From positions 1-59,501 of the IMG/VR virus record IMGVR_UViG_3300023179_005665: 59,501 nt of DNA, one strand, 5' to 3'. Positions 3,925 to 57,247 of the stretch are shown one piece after another. The DNA comes from a virus. Taxonomy: Duplodnaviria > Caudoviricetes. Positions within the stretch are counted from its first letter, which is position 1. Every line of letters starts with the position of its first letter. A program made the translations under genes and the position numbers. The notes beneath the pieces were generated by a model. It was given only the letters and a program-made list of their open reading frames with translations, searched no databases and was not told the origin of the DNA.

Positions 3925-6630
3925 TTAAATGTATGTTGCAGTTAATCTGTCGGTCCACCTAACATTTGTAGCTGTTGTTGTTATTATAGTTGTTCCATCA
4001 CTATTTATCACGTTTTGTTTTATTCTCCAAACACTACTACTTTCTGAACTACCAGCAGCTGCTACTCCAATATAATTAATATTACCAACATAATCACTCC
4101 TAACTTCTCCCAAACTTAAATTAATTTTAGGAACACTAATAAAACCTGTCCATTCCACAACATCTCCACTAACTGCGGGACTAGTTAATGTAAAAGAAGT
4201 TCCATTAGAAGCTGTAAAATCTTCACTATTAACTAATTTAATTCCATTATGATAAACATCTATATTATTAACAGAGTAGCCTCCATCAACAACAAATGAA
4301 CTTTTAGTAGTATTAACTAATTCATAATTTCTAAAACTAGAGGGCGAACTTACTGTAATGGTATTAGAAGCATCATTATAAGATACGCTGGTTGATCCTG
4401 AACCTACTATATTTAAATTTTCCGATAAATTATAAGATATTACTGTTCCTGAACCGTTACCAATAAGAGCAGTGCTAGATAATCCACTAACAGATACTGT
4501 TAAACTATTAGCATTATCATTATAGTTTAAATTAATTCCACTTCCTGCTACTAATAATGCTGCTACTCTATCATCAACTTCTTCTGTGGTCAATCCTAAA
4601 CTACCACTAACACTAACAGTATAATTACCACTAGTATTAACGACTGATATATTTGATCCTCCAGTTATATTTTTGACCGGCAGTAATCCGCTAACACTAC
4701 TATTAAAATCAGTAATATAATTAGAACCTATTCCTGAACTAGTGGTTAATATTCCACTCGCTCCTGTTGTTATTAATAAACCGCTAGTTGATCCGATAGT
4801 GCCGCTATTAGTAATATTCCCATGAGAATGACTTGTAGCTGCAAAATTTTCACTATTTGCCGTTGCAGCACTCCCTAGTCCGAGATTGGTGCGAGTGGTG
4901 GCGGCGATTGCGGCGGCATTTGCCCCAGTGAATAAAATAGGCAGATTGATTTGCATATTGCTTGTGCCGATCTGCATGTACGCAGATTCTCCAACTTCAA
5001 TAAGCAGCGCCCCGTCGGCGTAAACATGAACGGGAACGTCACTTTGATTAAAATCTACGGCATAGCATCTCACGGTGCCGTCTGTTTCGATGTCGCTGTT
5101 TTCGACGTACAGACTACCCCCAATAGTCACGCTACTGTCGAAAGAAATATCACTACTGCTCAACGGCAAATTAACAGTCGCGGCCGTGCCAAGGCCGAGA
5201 TTTGTACGGCTTGTCGCCGCCGCCGTTCCGCTGGTGTCATTGATAAATGACAGCGGCTTGGCAATGGCGAACGCCGTAGTGTCGGCAATCAGAATTGTTC
5301 CGAATCCACCGACATCAACCGAGATTCCGCCCTCGTTGTAAATCACGGCAGCAGGTTCGCCGCCAAGTGTGATTTGCCCGCCTGCGAACGTCCCGTAATC
5401 TTGAATGTCCGTACTGCTCAACGGCAAATTAGCAACGGCAGCACTTCCAAGACCAGTAACACTAACAATATAGTTTCCAGAACTAGAATTTACATTAATA
5501 TATCCACTTCCAGCTATATTTGTAACTGGTAATAGTCCGCTAACGCTACTATTAAAATCATAGATACTCTCTGATCGGATACCGCCTACAGAATTACATG
5601 CTTCAGTTAAGCCGTTTATATTTAATTGTTGTAAAAATATTGTTGTATCAGATCCTTTGTAAAATGTAGTACTATTATAGTCATCTGATTCTATTAATAT
5701 ATCATCTCCTTTGTGAATATGACCACTAATACTCACCGGAACATTATCAACATTTAAAATATTAAAATTTCCACTATTACACACTAACTGTCCGCTAGGA
5801 AGCAAATTAATATTTTTAGCACCAATACTAAAAGCATTAATATATGAGCTAGTCAAATATATACTATTTAATCCACTAGCATCAACTATACCTTTAACAT
5901 CAAGTTTATGACTAGGACTATTAGTACCCAAACCAATATATCCACCACTGGTAATCACAAAATCGTTTTGATCTGGTCTACCAGCAACTAATCTTCCGTC
6001 TTTAAAAACTTGAAAAACTGATTGTCCAATTTCATTATTAGCATTTAAGACAACATCACTATTATTATCAGAAATACTAAATAAAACTCCATTAGATCCC
6101 TCGACAGTAAATAAACTAGCCCCACTAACCGGTGAATAAACATGAAGAGTTGATAGTGGTTCTTGAGTACCTATGCCAATATTTCCACTATTACTTATTA
6201 AATTAATATTTCCATTAGTATTGACTATATTAATATCGCCACTATTACTAGAATTTGATTCTATATTAAAATCATAATAGCCAGATCGTCCAACTTCTAA
6301 AGCATTACCTTCTATAGATACCTTTCTATATGCTGTGGCCGGATTACCTAATCCAGAAGGTTTTAATACAATATTTCTACCAGTAAAAGATTCTATAGTA
6401 TCAACTTTAATTTTATCATTTGCTGATAATTGTGCAAAAATTCCAGTAGATGCTGTAAAACTAGGTATATTACTATTAATAATAGGTAAACTATTCCATG
6501 ATGAAGATCCATCACCAATTTTTAATATATTATTAGTAACATCAAAACCAGGTTCGCCGCTAGCTAAAACTATATTAGCAGCTTCCCACTGAGTTGATAA
6601 TCCTCTTTTTAGTAGTATAGTATTACTCAT
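3925..6630 (-). CDS. Tail fibre protein with Mtd_N-like N-terminal domain
   Basis: N-terminus LKRGLSTQWEAANIVLASGEPGFDVTNNILKIGDGSSSWNSLP (Mtd_N/hyaluronidase-N motif); GNIGIGTxxP and RTNLGLG fibre repeats; C-terminal YIGVA...VWRIK...WTDR module. Confidence 0.8.
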   Translation of the reverse strand: MSNTILLKRGLSTQWEAANIVLASGEPGFDVTNNILKIGDGSSSWNSLPIINSNIPSFTASTGIFAQLSANDKIKVDTIESFTGRNIVLKPSGLGNPATAYRKVSIEGNALEVGRSGYYDFNIESNSSNSGDINIVNTNGNINLISNSGNIGIGTQEPLSTLHVYSPVSGASLFTVEGSNGVLFSISDNNSDVVLNANNEIGQSVFQVFKDGRLVAGRPDQNDFVITSGGYIGLGTNSPSHKLDVKGIVDASGLNSIYLTSSYINAFSIGAKNINLLPSGQLVCNSGNFNILNVDNVPVSISGHIHKGDDILIESDDYNSTTFYKGSDTTIFLQQLNINGLTEACNSVGGIRSESIYDFNSSVSGLLPVTNIAGSGYINVNSSSGNYIVSVTGLGSAAVANLPLSSTDIQDYGTFAGGQITLGGEPAAVIYNEGGISVDVGGFGTILIADTTAFAIAKPLSFINDTSGTAAATSRTNLGLGTAATVNLPLSSSDISFDSSVTIGGSLYVENSDIETDGTVRCYAVDFNQSDVPVHVYADGALLIEVGESAYMQIGTSNMQINLPILFTGANAAAIAATTRTNLGLGSAATANSENFAATSHSHGNITNSGTIGSTSGLLITTGASGILTTSSGIGSNYITDFNSSVSGLLPVKNITGGSNISVVNTSGNYTVSVSGSLGLTTEEVDDRVAALLVAGSGINLNYNDNANSLTVSVSGLSSTALIGNGSGTVISYNLSENLNIVGSGSTSVSYNDASNTITVSSPSSFRNYELVNTTKSSFVVDGGYSVNNIDVYHNGIKLVNSEDFTASNGTSFTLTSPAVSGDVVEWTGFISVPKINLSLGEVRSDYVGNINYIGVAAAGSSESSSVWRIKQNVINSDGTTIITTTATNVRWTDRLTATYI
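5154..5431. repeat. 20-nt exact direct repeat (5154-5173 and 5412-5431) within GC-rich tail-fibre insert
   Basis: tactgctcaacggcaaatta occurs twice, 258 nt (86 codons) apart; encodes NLPLSS in both copies. Confidence 0.85.
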
Positions 6631-6658
6631 AATTATTTTTTGTTATTTTGATGATTTT

Positions 6659-6926
6659 GACCCGCAGCTCATAATGCCAAGACAAGTTTTGAAATATTCA
6701 ACAAGCTCCGACTTCTGAACGCCGCACATCATTTTCTAAAATTTCTTTTAGGATTGGACTATATCTTTTATACACTAGTATAATCAGGGCGCTCTTGCCT
6801 GTTATTAAGACAAACCATTTTGTCTCAGGTAGTCTCTACACCTTCGCAAAGATGGCTTTGCGCTTGGCTCGGTATTGCCATCAGCATTATCTGTTAAGGT
6901 TTCACCGAATTCACCCCGAATGGGCC
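6659..6926 (-). ncRNA. Group I ribozyme (IA-like, with P7.1), intergenic, candidate circularly permuted form
   Basis: Minus strand shows P (GAAUUCGGUGAAACC), Q (CAAUACCGAGCCAAGC), R (GUGUAGAGACUA) and S (AAGAUAUAGUCC) elements. Helices: P3 UCGGGGUG(6919-6912)/CGCCCUGA(6791-6784); P4 UUCGGU/ACCGAG; P6a CGCAAAG/CUUUGCG; P7 GACUA/UAGUC; P8 UUAUAC/GUAUAA; P9 CUAAAA-GAAA-UUUUAG. Terminal AAUG places omega-G at 6730. The core call is strong; the permutation is inferred. Confidence 0.88.
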
Positions 6927-6941
6927 TTTAAATTTTTTAAC

Positions 6942-7460
6942 TTATATGTTCCTCCTATTATTTCTAAATAAAACTATAGTATTATTAACTATAACTCCAT
7001 ATCTATATATTCTATATTGGTATAATGGTTTAATTTTAATTGGCGGATTAAGACCTGGGTTTTTATCTGTATATTCTAAAAATAATACTTCAATAAACAC
7101 TTTACTATTATTAGGTAGTTCATCAGTAAACATGAGAGGTATAGTATCAGATATTTCTGTCGGTGGATTTTCATTGATAATATCAGTACAATAAACTCGA
7201 CTTTTTAAATTTAACGTTCGAAGGTCCATTTTTTCAGATTTTTTATTAAAAACAGCATTTGTGGTTTTTTCAAAAGTGAAAATATTATTGCTATAATTAT
7301 AGTAATATCGTCGTACTGATTTTTTAGTTAAATTAGGCAATGTTGTATCTGGTCCATAGCATCTAGCATTAAAAAAATCCTGATTTTGATTATTATAAAT
7401 ACCAACTTTATTTAAACAATTTTGAATTTTAACTATATTTTTTGGTCCATAAGTTCTCAT
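6942..7460 (-). CDS. Hypothetical protein
   Basis: 172-aa ORF, ATGA-coupled to upstream tail fibre; no recognised motif. Confidence 0.55.
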   Translation of the reverse strand: MRTYGPKNIVKIQNCLNKVGIYNNQNQDFFNARCYGPDTTLPNLTKKSVRRYYYNYSNNIFTFEKTTNAVFNKKSEKMDLRTLNLKSRVYCTDIINENPPTEISDTIPLMFTDELPNNSKVFIEVLFLEYTDKNPGLNPPIKIKPLYQYRIYRYGVIVNNTIVLFRNNRRNI

Positions 7461-10400
7461 AATGATCCTCCATCAATAATACAATTAGTCAATACTGTTG
7501 GATTATTAATATTATTTCCTACTATACTAGTGAGACCAGATAATGATCCATAGGTTCCACCAATACTAACTGTTGTTGATCCTAAAGTTAAACTATTAGA
7601 TATTGTTGATATTAATCCGTTACTTGTTGTGCTTAATAATACACCAGAAGTTGAACCTATCGTACCACTATTGGTTATATTGCCATGAGAATGAACGCTA
7701 TTAGCATAATCTCCACTGGGTTGTACTCCAGTAATATTAATTGTATAAGTACCACTAGTATTAGAAATATTAGCATATTCACTACCAACTATATTTTTAA
7801 CCGGTAATAAACCACTAACACTACTATTGAAATTAGTTATATCAGAACTAATATGAGAGTGACCGCTAACGCTAACTCTAATCCCATTCTGCTGTAAGGT
7901 TGTAAAATTACCACTAGGAGCTGTAATGGCTCCTATAAAAGAAGCTCCGTTAAGATTAGCTTTACCAGCCAAACTGTTAGTAACCGTTGTGCTAAAATTA
8001 GCATCATTCCCTAATGCGCTTGCTAACTCATTAAGAGTGTCTAATGTTGACGGGGCCGAGCCAACAAGATTACTAATCTCATTTCTTACAAATGCTGTAC
8101 TAGCGATTTGATTAGTATTTGTTCCACTACTAGCTGTTGGAGCTGTCGGTATTCCTGTTAATGCTGGACTATTTAACGGAGCATATATTCCACTCACCAA
8201 ACTATTTACACTACTATTAAAATTAGTAATATCATTAGACAAATGACCATGTCCAACTAAACTATAATTACCGCTGGGCTGTAAGCCTGTAACACTAACA
8301 GTGTATGTTCCATTAGAGTTACTAATATTAACATATCCAGAACCAGACACATTTTTAACGGGTAATAGCCCGCTTACTCCACTACCAAAATTAGTTATAT
8401 CAGAAACTATATGACTATGGCCAACGGTGCTGTAATTACCACTAGGCTGTAATCCAGATGTAGAAATGGTTAATGTATCTAGTACTGAATCATAATTGAT
8501 CGTTATAAATGATCCTGCTAATAATGTGGTAGTTAAATTATTTTGAACCCCACTAGCAAAATTAGCGATATCAGTATAATTATGATAGTGTCCAGAAACT
8601 GAAACGGGAATTCCACTAACTGATAAACTATTAAAATTAGCTCCAGAGGTATACGCTAAACCAGTAGCAGATATATTAAAATTAGTACCAATAGTTGAAA
8701 TATATATTCCACTATTACCTGTTATATTTGTAATTGGTAATAAACCACTTACGCTATTATTAAAATTAGTAATATAATTAGAACTTATTCCTGAACTAGT
8801 TGTTAATAAACCACTTGGTCCTGTTGTTACTAATAATCCACTAACCGATCCTATATTTCCACTAGAAGAAATATTGCCAAGATTATTTAAACTAGCTAAA
8901 GATCCTACTCCTGATACTTGAGACAAATTAATATTTTCTGCTGATCCTAATAATACATATAATCCAGAATTAAAAACTGATCCACTATTACCATCGGGAG
9001 ATTTTTTTTGATATACTCGACCATTATATGTATATCGACGATAAATATATTGATCTTGATTGGGCTGCCAGATGACTGATGGTAATAAAGATCTATATCT
9101 AAATAAGTCAAAATCTGGTAATATTGAAGATAACTGAGGACTAACAATATTTCCACCCTGGTCTTGATAGCTTAAAGAATTGCATATTATTAAATTATCA
9201 ATAATTCCCCCAAAACTATCTATAGCATCAGTTAGTCCATTTGCTTCTAGTTGTGCTAGAAATCCATCGGCACTACCATTATCAGAATAATTACCTCCTA
9301 AATTATCTGATACTATATCACTTATCTTTATATAATTTTTTGTTGCAAGACTTCCCAAATCTGAGTTTTTTGCGTAATTACCGCTAGGCTGCAATCCTGT
9401 TACACTGATATTATAAATTCCACTAGTATTAGTAATATTAACATATCCCGATCCTGTAATATTTTTAACTGGTAATAGTCCACTAACCGCACTACCAAAA
9501 TTAGTATTTAACAATAATACATTAGATGATAATCTAGCATCGGGCAAAATACCAGTAGTTAATAAATTAGCATTAATTGTGGGAGGAGCTGTAGCTATTA
9601 CAGCGCTTGTAAAATCAGTAATTTGACTAGATGGTATTCCAGAAACAACAGTTAGTAGTCCGCTTGTGGTTGTTATTACTAATTGTCCGGATAGTGATCC
9701 TATTCTTCCATCATTAGTAATATTGCCATGAGTATGAGATAAAGATGCTTTGGTATCTAATCCAGATTGAGTAGCTAAACTAATTGGTTTATTAAGATCA
9801 CTAGTATTGTTAACATTACTTAATCCAACATCATTTTTAGTTAGAGTAACAATGCCTATACGACCAGCAACACTTTGTACGGGGGCAGCGCCGCTAGCTC
9901 TAGCATCAGTATAATATTTATTTATACTACCTTCTGGCACACTATCAGTACTACCAGGAGAAGAGCTAATTTCTATATAACTACTACCACCCCATCTATA
10001 GGTTTTATTATTATCTAGAGTAACATAAATTTTACCAGGTTCACCAATAGATGGAAAATTTCCACTACTACTATATTCTAACACATCATCAACATAGCTG
10101 GGTAATTGAGATGCTGGAATCAATCCATTCACCAGTATAGCATAACTACCCGATATTTGTTTGTTATCTAAAGCAGACTGAAGTCCTGTAACGTCACCAA
10201 TATTATGAATATGTCCAACAACACTGTAGTCACCAGATGGTTGTAGTCCAGTTACATTAATAGTTAAAGTATTATTAGGATCATTATAATTTAAATCTAT
10301 ATACGATCCACTCTTTAGCAAATCATTTACTCTATCATCAACTTGTTCGCTAGTTAATCCAAATTGCCCAGTGACACTTACTTGAAAATCTTTATCAGTA

Positions 10401-10789
10401 ATACTGACCGATATGCCACTACCAGCACTAACATTTTGAACAGGCAATAAACCACTAACAGCACTATTAAAATCTGTTACTTCAGAAACAGTATGACGAT
10501 GTCCTACCGTGCTATAATTACCACTTGGTTGTAATCCAGTAGTATAAATTTTAATTATACCAGAATTTAATGGATCTATAGATATACCTGATGATCCAAC
10601 TATAGTATTATTTAATACAGTTTGAATATTATAGCTAAAGTCATTTGGTAACAAAGCTATATCGTGAGATACTAATATCTCTGATGAATTATTTTGTATA
10701 ATCTCTATTGTTGGAGGATTATCTCCAATAGTAGCTTCTAGCTCTATAAAATTAGAAGATGATTCTACAATCTCTACGCTATAACTCAT
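7457..10789 (-). CDS. Long tail fibre protein
   Basis: Many VTGLQPSGNYSxVGHxHxxSDITNFxSxVSGLLPV repeats; APLNSPALTGIPTAPTA...LDTLNELASALGNDANF tail-fibre motif; ends IDGGSL. Confidence 0.85.
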   Translation of the reverse strand: MSYSVEIVESSSNFIELEATIGDNPPTIEIIQNNSSEILVSHDIALLPNDFSYNIQTVLNNTIVGSSGISIDPLNSGIIKIYTTGLQPSGNYSTVGHRHTVSEVTDFNSAVSGLLPVQNVSAGSGISVSITDKDFQVSVTGQFGLTSEQVDDRVNDLLKSGSYIDLNYNDPNNTLTINVTGLQPSGDYSVVGHIHNIGDVTGLQSALDNKQISGSYAILVNGLIPASQLPSYVDDVLEYSSSGNFPSIGEPGKIYVTLDNNKTYRWGGSSYIEISSSPGSTDSVPEGSINKYYTDARASGAAPVQSVAGRIGIVTLTKNDVGLSNVNNTSDLNKPISLATQSGLDTKASLSHTHGNITNDGRIGSLSGQLVITTTSGLLTVVSGIPSSQITDFTSAVIATAPPTINANLLTTGILPDARLSSNVLLLNTNFGSAVSGLLPVKNITGSGYVNITNTSGIYNISVTGLQPSGNYAKNSDLGSLATKNYIKISDIVSDNLGGNYSDNGSADGFLAQLEANGLTDAIDSFGGIIDNLIICNSLSYQDQGGNIVSPQLSSILPDFDLFRYRSLLPSVIWQPNQDQYIYRRYTYNGRVYQKKSPDGNSGSVFNSGLYVLLGSAENINLSQVSGVGSLASLNNLGNISSSGNIGSVSGLLVTTGPSGLLTTSSGISSNYITNFNNSVSGLLPITNITGNSGIYISTIGTNFNISATGLAYTSGANFNSLSVSGIPVSVSGHYHNYTDIANFASGVQNNLTTTLLAGSFITINYDSVLDTLTISTSGLQPSGNYSTVGHSHIVSDITNFGSGVSGLLPVKNVSGSGYVNISNSNGTYTVSVTGLQPSGNYSLVGHGHLSNDITNFNSSVNSLVSGIYAPLNSPALTGIPTAPTASSGTNTNQIASTAFVRNEISNLVGSAPSTLDTLNELASALGNDANFSTTVTNSLAGKANLNGASFIGAITAPSGNFTTLQQNGIRVSVSGHSHISSDITNFNSSVSGLLPVKNIVGSEYANISNTSGTYTINITGVQPSGDYANSVHSHGNITNSGTIGSTSGVLLSTTSNGLISTISNSLTLGSTTVSIGGTYGSLSGLTSIVGNNINNPTVLTNCIIDGGSL

Positions 10790-56618: not shown

Positions 56619-57080
56619 ATGAATATTAAATATCATTATAGCAAAGAAAACTTAAGCAAAATTTGTGCCAAGTCTTTTAGTTATAGAGAGTGTTTAACTA
56701 AAATGGGTTTAACTCCTGCCGGTGGTAATTATGCTTCATTAAAAAAACATATTAAACTATATAACATTGATATTTCACATTTTACTTTACAGGGATGGTC
56801 AAAAGGCAAAATAATTGGTCCTAAAAGAGAACTAATAGATTATCTTTCTAACAAGCAAACAATAACAAGTTGGAAACTCAAAAAAAGATTATTAAGCGAA
56901 AAAATATTTGAACATAAATGCTTAAATTGTAATAGTAAAACTTGGCTAAATGAAAAAATTCCACTAGAATTGCATCATAAAGATGGTAATAATATGAACA
57001 ATAATCTTTCTAATCTTGAATTACTATGTCCTAATCGTCATGCTTTAACTGATAATTATAGATCTAAAAATAGAAAATAG
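56619..57080 (+). CDS. HNH homing endonuclease (CPNCH altered to CPNRH)
   Basis: SWKLKKRLL, KCLNC..WL..IPLELHHKDGN..NNLSNLELLCPNRH; convergent with tRNA; start refined to 56619. Confidence 0.85.
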   Translation: MNIKYHYSKENLSKICAKSFSYRECLTKMGLTPAGGNYASLKKHIKLYNIDISHFTLQGWSKGKIIGPKRELIDYLSNKQTITSWKLKKRLLSEKIFEHKCLNCNSKTWLNEKIPLELHHKDGNNMNNNLSNLELLCPNRHALTDNYRSKNRK

Positions 57081-57152
57081 CCCGGATCGGATTCGAACCG
57101 ATACTGTATCGATTTTAAGTCGATTGTCTGCTGCCAGTTGGACTACCGGGCC
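57078..57152 (-). tRNA. tRNA-Leu(UAA), short variable loop, no encoded CCA
   Basis: GGCCCGG/CCGGGCU acceptor, discriminator A, D arm GUC..GAC, anticodon arm AUCGA-CUUAAAA-UCGAU, T arm AUCGG-UUCGAAU-CCGAU. Confidence 0.88.
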
Positions 57153-57247
57153 ATTATACATCTGACTACACAAACCAATTTTATGAGGTTGACTATTGTT
57201 GAGCCTCAAATGTAGTCTATGTAGTCAGAATGTATTTTGTTTTATAA

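Follow-up and report, generated by a model that had tools for sequence, protein, structure and literature searches.

A putative circularly permuted group I ribozyme family in intergenic regions of phage genomes

Introduction

The group I ribozymes of bacteria and their phages are known as introns that have to be spliced from genes, and the td, nrdB and nrdD introns of phage T4 are the textbook examples in phages. Here we describe a group I element in a stretch of viral DNA of 59,501 nucleotides (nt) (Duplodnaviria; Caudoviricetes; IMG/VR record IMGVR_UViG_3300023179_005665, positions 1 to 59,501; hereafter the window), which is located between two genes and appears to carry its parts in a permuted order. 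A first reading of the window from its letters alone, called the original prediction in the following, had proposed at this place a natural circularly permuted group I intron making an RNA circle of 27 nt.

The order in question is that of the engineered permuted intron-exon (PIE) constructs: a 3' intron part with omega-G is followed by the exon and the 5' splice site, and a circular exon and two linear intron pieces are expected when both reaction steps run. These constructs are broken in a peripheral loop, and their exon is a cargo of choice. The window element differs in that the break would be located in the P1 loop, so that only a few nucleotides make up the 5' intron part, and in that a short hairpin of variable sequence takes the place of the 'exon'. 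A further likeness exists to the lariat-capping ribozyme GIR1, a group I descendant which does not splice, cuts upstream of an open reading frame (ORF) and forms the 5' end of the mRNA. GIR1 is not known to have P1 or a U.G substrate helix, its core is remodelled and it forms a 3-nt lariat. The window element does not fit this class, with an ordinary core of the Rfam family RF00028 and a P1-type helix with a U.G pair. To our knowledge, lariat capping is the single case of a group I ribozyme recruited beyond splicing. The c-di-GMP-dependent group I ribozyme of Clostridioides difficile is part of a 5' untranslated region; it splices, its parts follow each other in the normal order, and its reaction decides on the proximity of the ribosome-binding site to the start codon; in contrast, there is no riboswitch family beside the window element.

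Two natural permuted systems have been described. According to Chi et al. (2019, PMC6545197), the giant group I intron ND5-717 of mushroom-coral mitochondria is removed by back-splicing from a natural permuted precursor; it spans 18-19 kb, contains most of the mitochondrial genome within P8 and restores ND5. In contrast, the phage element comprises about 280 nt, is intergenic and joins no coding exons. The original prediction had stated that natural permutation is known for group II introns, which is incomplete in view of the coral precursor. The bacterial circularly permuted group II introns are, according to Roth et al. (2021, PMC8637638), compact, conserved and self-splicing, leave ORFs uninterrupted and release small circles. 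They parallel the phage element and represent another ribozyme class with branching chemistry. Neither for bacteria nor for phages did a search of the literature, which did not extend to supplements, bring up a description of a permuted group I ribozyme.

Results

A group I core without exons to join

The comparison of the window with related loci indicates that the permuted layout is very likely real. On balance, the segment 6926..6649 of the minus strand is probably a naturally permuted group I ribozyme of a conserved phage family, which has no P2 and would cut after U6660. Since the order is common to some two dozen phage sequences, the element probably cuts mRNA rather than splices a gene; we infer its catalytic activity and its products from sequence comparison. 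All positions given below refer to the minus strand.

For the comparison relatives were gathered by DNA pattern scans using pieces of the core, and 24 distinct phage or metagenome sequences, from phage contigs of lake and other metagenomes, were aligned with MAFFT (alignment A6; single loci are designated by L numbers). The core itself was identified by a match to RF00028 at 6735..6979 (60.0 bits compared to a gathering score of 50, E 1.9e-14) in a region search with permissive filters. An Rfam scan of the whole 59.5-kb window in gathering mode missed this 60-bit match, and it was found by a 1.2-kb search with laxer filters. The catalytic core extends over 6757..6919. In the RF00028 alignment it consists of P3 (6919-6912/6791-6784), P4 (6908-6903/6874-6869), the P5 region (6902-6875), P6/P6a (6868-6840), P7 (6834-6830/6761-6757), P7.1 as an extra hairpin between P7 and the 3' strand of P3 (6829-6798), P8 (6782-6769) and J8/7 (6768-6762). 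It is followed by the P9 hairpin with a GAAA cap (6736..6751), which covaries and has flipped strands in relatives. Within alignment A6 P7 and the J8/7 stretch are invariant in 24/24 sequences, and P3, P6a, P7.1 and P9 covary across the family. The conserved P3-P9 core is thus complete in the element, including J8/7, the pseudoknot of P3 and P7, and P7 as the site of guanosine binding. The group I core of the original prediction was thereby confirmed on the minus strand, and the strings quoted in it were all found in place.

The Rfam columns for P1 and P2 fall on the end of a 172-amino acid (aa) ORF (6979-6940) and are flagged as non-pairing. The core sits exactly between this 172-aa gene and a tail-fibre gene, and only 15 nt separate the stop codon of the 172-aa ORF from the sequence GGCCC in front of P3. 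The statement that an intergenic core leaves no room for an intergenic P1/P2 upstream was therefore correct. An Rfam search of 6300-7500 at E values up to 10 revealed no other significant family; the six additional matches were snoRNA or sRNA families with E values of at least 3.3, and no aptamer family as in a riboswitch-controlled group I ribozyme was located beside the element. Neither in the window nor in L003, L004, L009, L014 and further checked loci does the element interrupt a gene with ligatable exons; it is intergenic in all of them. By its core and P1 the element is predicted to be a group I ribozyme, yet it is without exons to join, which is the defining feature of an intron.

A P1-like helix between the 5' end and a downstream strand

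The sequence GGCCC (6922..6926), which is separated from P3 by 2 nt (AU), is found at this place in the window and stays at the same offset in 24/24 family sequences, as four covarying variants. In the window it can form 5/5 pairs with GGGUC (6659..6663) behind the core, with U6660 as wobble partner of G6925. This pairing of 6926-6922 with 6663-6659 is present in the minimum free energy (MFE) fold of 6631-6945. RNAalifold with 7 relatives closes the entire core with GGCCC:GGGUC, and 26 of the 48 predicted pairs change on both sides.

The helix has 5/5 pairs in 21 of the 24 sequences and 4/5 in the remaining three (L260, L269, L295), and its fourth pair is a U.G wobble in 24/24. Fully paired guide:substrate variants are GGCCC:GGGUC (16 sequences), CGCCC:GGGUG (1), UGCCC:GGGUA (2) and UGCCU:AGGUA (2); the imperfect ones are UGCCU:CGGUA, UGCCU:UGGUA and GGCCC:GGGUG with one sequence each. 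In the case of L312 the guide UGCCC was predicted from the substrate GGGUA and was then found. The substrate strand is followed by AA in all members.

On alignment A6 the full structure leaves 92.4% of the cells paired compared to 75.0% in shuffles (0/500 reach 92.4%). Sliding the 3' partners by 1-3 columns lowers the paired cells to 35-47%. Of the 53 pairs, 31 are changed in both strands. The P1-like helix alone is paired in 91.6%, despite a misregistration of the UGCCU clade by one column in the MAFFT alignment.

These features agree with P1 of a group I ribozyme. The guide pairs with a strand ending in U at the predicted cleavage site (after U6660), a U.G wobble is formed there, and the order of the strands is reversed compared to a normal intron. 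The pattern of three exon-side pairs, an invariant U.G and one more pair, located 2 nt before P3, is that of P1, and the predicted point of permutation is the P1 loop and not the P2 loop. Within 400 nt upstream of the guide GGG[U/C] is absent in the window, L003 and L009, which leaves the guide without an upstream partner.

A conventional relative uses the same helix as P1

At the locus L223 a gene for a 5'-3' exonuclease (exon 1 matches PF02739, E 2.6e-11) is interrupted by a conventional intron, which contains an endonuclease-like ORF. The layout of this intron is GGGU-C, a 6-nt loop, GGCCC, 2 nt and P3. When exon 1 is joined at that U to the sequence behind a G of the 3' tail, the protein aligns without gaps across the junction with an uninterrupted exonuclease of a Klebsiella phage (query 7-220, 31% identity, E 6e-22), whereas the unspliced read-through ceases to align at residue 197. 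Because this protein homology spans the exon junction, GGGU-C:GGCCC is a proven P1 in L223. As the identical helix is used there as P1, we interpret GGCCC of the window as internal guide and GGGU-C as a substrate resembling a 5' splice site. The original prediction had assigned the pairing 6926-6922/6663-6659 to P2. The pairing itself was supported by the MFE fold, RNAalifold and its conservation; the label P2 was not, since the helix is P1 in L223.

Phage introns of the L223 type share with the window element the RF00028 core, P7.1, the missing P2, the guide GGCCC 2 nt before P3, GGGU-C with its U.G and a 3' end of the type A-rich..G. In L223 the substrate is located upstream via the 6-nt loop, the exons encode one protein and an endonuclease ORF lies inside. 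In the window element, in contrast, the substrate follows only after P9 and the G, at a distance of about 260 nt downstream, and there are neither coding exons nor an ORF. In two further canonical relatives, L080 and L139, the guide precedes P3 by 3 nt and P2 is missing. The remaining introns listed for the family, roughly 100, possess an ordinary P2 hairpin, and their J2/3 is longer.

In another locus, L022 (G001:C1:22862-26010), a ribonucleotide reductase gene is split by two group I introns, both of which contain an endonuclease-like ORF. Between its first two exons about 15 expected residues are not encoded; this may be the place of a mini-exon or of a third intron. The sequence GGGUCAAA also occurs in the ribonucleotide reductase intron of L012/L022; there is no matching guide, and the occurrence is probably due to chance.

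The permuted order is conserved in different genomic contexts

In the window the guide and core (6926-6736) are followed by G6730, a spacer (6729-6664) and the substrate (6663-6659). The order of core with candidate omega-G, 'exon' and predicted 5' splice site is kept in 24/24 sequences. In detail, the family shows guide, core, P9, an A/U-rich linker ending in G, the 5' strand of a stem designated A, a hairpin designated H, the substrate, AA and the 3' strand of stem A.

In L003, in the loci of the L004 type (L004, L005, L007, L008, L010), in L009 and in L011 a homologue of the 172-aa ORF ends with its stop codon directly in front of the element. These homologues show 32-35% identity and contain the motif ..IYRYG.I..N... 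The upstream ORF ends 0-26 nt before the guide in the checked contexts; in the case of L009 the stop codon and the guide have the first G of GGCCC in common. A comparison of the last codons in L004 and L009 (..ERRPS..) revealed three synonymous changes. The tail of the ORF is therefore translated to its stop, and there is no room upstream for a conventional 5' splice site plus guide.

The genes downstream differ among the loci and encode tail-fibre, LamG-like, capsid-like or virion structural proteins. No conserved peptide is encoded behind the core, as GGGUCAAA falls in differing frames across the loci. In 9 of the 24 sequences (L258, L278, L292, L293, L296, L309, L311, L312, L314) a conserved start codon is located 2-12 nt after the predicted cut. 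The corresponding proteins comprise 900-1094 aa; the one tested, from L293, matches phrog_5838 (virion structural) with an E value of 4e-158. The first codons of the protein in these nine members are identical with the 3' strand of stem A.

Two loci show another arrangement. In L268 and L274 (= L306) a complete P1 hairpin (GGGUA, loop, UGCCC) is placed 3' of the core. The 3' end is clamped to the strand in front of P3, by a perfect duplex of 16 bp in L274 and by 17/18 pairs in L268. This is predicted to be a second, different rearrangement of the same ribozyme, which presents P1 from the 3' side.

In L014, L016, L021 and L287 the element is followed, at a distance of about 20-50 nt, by a promoter-like stretch (TTGACA, 17 nt, CATACT/TACGAT) and then by a capsid-like gene of 503 aa; in this clade an operon may have its 3' end at the element. 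A 182-aa ORF of the GC-richer clade was considered as homologue of the 172-aa ORF and rejected (hhalign probability 0.3%).

Several additional scans yielded noise or no loci. The pattern GGCCC, gap, AATTCGGTG gave 103 distinct matches, which were nearly all chance matches in GC-rich contigs, plus L223. The 11 genome-contig loci contained, by our reading, no permuted arrangement, and two further pattern scans returned 0 loci.

Candidate omega-G, stem A and hairpin H

The candidate omega-G is G6730, the first G after the linker AAAAU behind P9, and its position is conserved in every member read. The assignment is based on analogy and fits the A-rich..G 3' ends of the canonical relatives. G6730 is part of the 5' strand of stem A (UGAUG, 6727..6731), which pairs with the 3' strand CAUCA (6649..6653) located after the linker AAAAU (6658-6654). 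A helix at the equivalent place was found in 21/21 members tested, and at least 11 sequence variants of it occur. For this stem the control by cross-pairing is weak (own mean 5.95 bp, cross 4.62), because the relatives have A/U-rich strands in common. The omega-G of the original prediction thus remains a candidate: it is a conserved first G after an A/U-rich linker, but it is paired in stem A.

Hairpin H (6664..6725) has a base helix (6725-6721/6668-6664) which corresponds to the small hairpins of the relatives and is used in the local MFE fold of 6726-6664 (-14.0 kcal/mol). Its length varies, with 62 nt in the window, 10-14 nt in the three loci L003, L004 and L009, and 45-85 nt in a further seven. 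No U.G is present in H of L003, L004, L007 and L009, and in the GC-richer clade (L014, L016, L021) H keeps a conserved U.G beside covarying pairs. An expansion of about 50 nt is found in the window only. In this architecture the substrate strand sits in a three-way junction with the variable H and the covarying stem A.

An ORF of 29 codons (AUG AUG UGC ..., 6646-6732) begins at the candidate omega-G and traverses H and the substrate strand. It is unconserved, relatives read GGGUCAAA in other frames, and the ORF is predicted to be probably spurious. The 3' strand of the enlarged H (6664-6672, AUGAGCUGC) resembles the start of the LamG-like gene, AUGAGCUAC/U, in L003 (473-481) and L004 (3870-3878). 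The resemblance may be the trace of an earlier module swap, or chance.

Alternative explanations for the conserved element

The alternative that survives best, which we nevertheless consider unlikely, is that the core serves some non-catalytic purpose or is in slow decay, and that the guide-substrate helix is a mere closing stem. As such roles we envisage a structured block which stabilises the upstream mRNA at its 3' end, a mask of the downstream ribosome-binding region or a recombination linker between tail-gene modules. This would agree with the long duplex which closes the ends of L268/L274, with the differing downstream genes, as expected at a module junction, and with the purine-rich substrate 5-9 nt before AUG in L292, L293, L296 and L314, the place of a Shine-Dalgarno element. 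On the other hand, P7 and J8/7 would not have to be invariant in 24/24 sequences, a plain stem should drift to Watson-Crick pairs instead of keeping U.G in 24/24, and the compensatory changes in core helices across clades argue for selection on the catalytic fold.

A smaller chance is given to an active ribozyme that hydrolyses at G6730, or whose G then attacks the substrate and removes 6729..6660 as a linear piece. The conserved G after an A/U-rich linker resembles the omega-G of canonical relatives, and stem A would keep it near the substrate helix. Hydrolysis at G6730 alone, however, leaves the conserved U.G substrate helix without obvious role, and we regard this reaction as improbable.

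The arrangement of the original prediction consisted of P1 (6707-6701/6672-6666), P10 (6677-6671/6729-6724) and a back-spliced circle of 27 nt after a cut behind U6703. These pairings exist, and the combination of a helix of at least 7 bp with U.G and a 6/6 P10 arose in only 26/400 shuffles; in addition, the H hairpins of L014, L016 and L021 have a conserved U.G by covarying pairs. Yet a P1 which had been called convincing is at chance level, since a helix of at least 7 bp with U.G was obtained in 254/400 shuffles of the 84 nt behind AUGUGC. It is also outside the local MFE fold, and forcing it gives -9.3 instead of -14.0 kcal/mol (cost 4.7). Conservation of P1 and P10 in homologues was not observed: the stretch is missing in most of the 23 relatives, and the 7 loci with an enlarged hairpin carry unrelated sequence. 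P1 and the P10 guide (6677-6671), and with them the 27-nt circle, are located in the window-private expansion of H; the cut is predicted after U6660 instead, and any circle would comprise 70 nt. As the helix taken for P2 is the proven P1 of L223, this model is highly improbable. Its permuted PIE-like order was supported by the comparative evidence, which did not bear out the individual P1, P10 and P2 assignments. Taken together, the original observation is partly confirmed and its interpretation partly supported.

Slightly less probable still is an ordinary intron in the 172-aa gene with P1 in the gene end (the 5' splice site lying, for instance, after 6994) and with a 3' exon that is short. 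In favour of it, a weak Rfam P1/P2 at 6979-6940 and a hairpin at 6998-6970, the fallback of the original prediction, can be cited, but the Rfam columns are non-pairing, the hairpin stretch is coding, conserved as protein and without such a hairpin in relatives, the tail is translated to the stop, no conserved peptide follows the core and the guide has no upstream partner.

Two related constructions were rejected. The 172-aa ORF is not an intron ORF with a 5' splice site in the 1110-aa gene upstream, as the 172-aa family is a conserved neighbour gene preceded by complete genes. Splicing that would place AGGAGG (6956-6951) beside the AUG at 6729 was discarded because these six letters are coding, with RR or GG in relatives, the spacings misfit in L004 and no P1 can be drawn.

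Neighbouring genes and origin of the DNA

Every gene around the element is encoded on the minus strand. An upstream tail-fibre gene (1110 aa, 7457..10789) overlaps the 172-aa ORF (6942..7460, stop codon 6944-6942), which is not a ribozyme exon. The intergenic gap of 311 nt (6941..6631) holds the ribozyme element and ends with an A-rich leader without Shine-Dalgarno motif (6631..6648), directly followed by the AUG (6630-6628) of the downstream tail-fibre gene (901 aa, start 6630, from the ORF list). A word search with the 172-aa protein returned one protein, itself, and no viral locus, no PHROG and no Pfam match.

The IMG/VR virus record of the window has an estimated completeness of 43%. According to the metagenome run look-up, the DNA of the window occurs solely in lake and freshwater metagenomes, and none of the listed runs is on record as RNA. 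Run X2 covers the locus with identical sequence, whereas in X3, X4 and X7 relatives are represented by their core only.

The 1110-aa and 901-aa tail-fibre proteins (3925-10789) have repeated blocks in common, e.g. ..FNSSVSGLLPVKNI.. and ..HSHGNITNSGTIGSTSG... In a contig of run X2 position 7845 is connected back to 6490 via 25 other letters, which is consistent with a recombination between the tail-fibre repeats, or with an assembly artefact. The sole tRNA gene of the window is located at 57077-57153 (75-77 nt; ARAGORN: tRNA-Leu, anticodon UAA; Rfam: 56.6 bits). It has no long variable arm, a feature expected for a bacterial tRNA-Leu.

Discussion

In the proposed mechanism the guide at the 5' end would dock the downstream GGGU-C strand into an unchanged active site, like an ordinary P1, and guanosine or GTP would attack after U6660. 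The cut would split the late polycistronic RNA in two: the upstream part would terminate with the folded ribozyme, and the downstream part would be a tail-fibre mRNA starting with an added G and an A-rich leader of 29 nt (6659-6631). In a second and less certain step the 3'-OH of U6660 would attack behind G6730 and free a circle of 70 nt (6729..6660). Depending on the size of H, such circles would range from about 18 to about 85 nt across the relatives, and their release would render the cut irreversible. With a distance of 0-26 nt between the upstream stop codon and the guide, a terminating ribosome would cover the guide. In the nine members with a nearby start codon the cut would yield a near-leaderless mRNA. 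The purine-rich substrate could instead be a Shine-Dalgarno element, which is masked by the guide or removed by the cut.

Several observations weigh against a permuted ribozyme that cuts after U6660. The spacer 'exons' of relatives, with only 18-26 nt, may be too short for the second step. The link between the guide and P3 comprises only 2 nt, as it also does in L223. G6730 is base-paired to C6650 in the covarying stem A, and no consistent canonical P10 could be identified between the 5' flank of the guide and a downstream site preceded by G. With respect to the helix itself, the prediction of the guide failed for L295 (GGCCC with GGGUG, a mismatch at pair 5), L260 and L269 are mismatched at pair 1, and both strands are invariant within the own clade of the window, the covariation stemming from other clades. 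Two of the scans that collected relatives required GGCCC or GGGTCAAA; the first scan and the last scans required neither helix strand. The substrate was found partly by its complementarity, and its position is nonetheless fixed by the flanking AA and stem A. Finally, no joint was detected at the element in the runs X2, X3, X4 and X7, which are DNA contigs with one guessed RNA.

More specifically, we tentatively propose that members of a splicing-free phage ribozyme family cut late RNA upstream of the starts of structural genes with cellular GTP and then release a mini-circle of 18-85 nt, although we do not regard this full sequence of events as likely. If it is true, the upstream mRNA would be capped at its 3' end by a folded ribozyme, and the downstream mRNA would have a G-initiated, possibly triphosphorylated and near-leaderless 5' end. 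The family would then be a counterpart, in bacterial viruses, of the lariat-capping ribozyme. It would also be the first permuted group I ribozyme from nature that is compact.

For annotation it has to be considered that the element escapes whole-window Rfam scans at the gathering threshold. If active, it would be a self-contained RNA-processing device of phage late operons and a natural precedent for the engineered PIE circle-makers, with the break in the P1 loop and with very small exons. The family makes it testable whether group I ribozymes have taken on non-splicing jobs beyond lariat capping.

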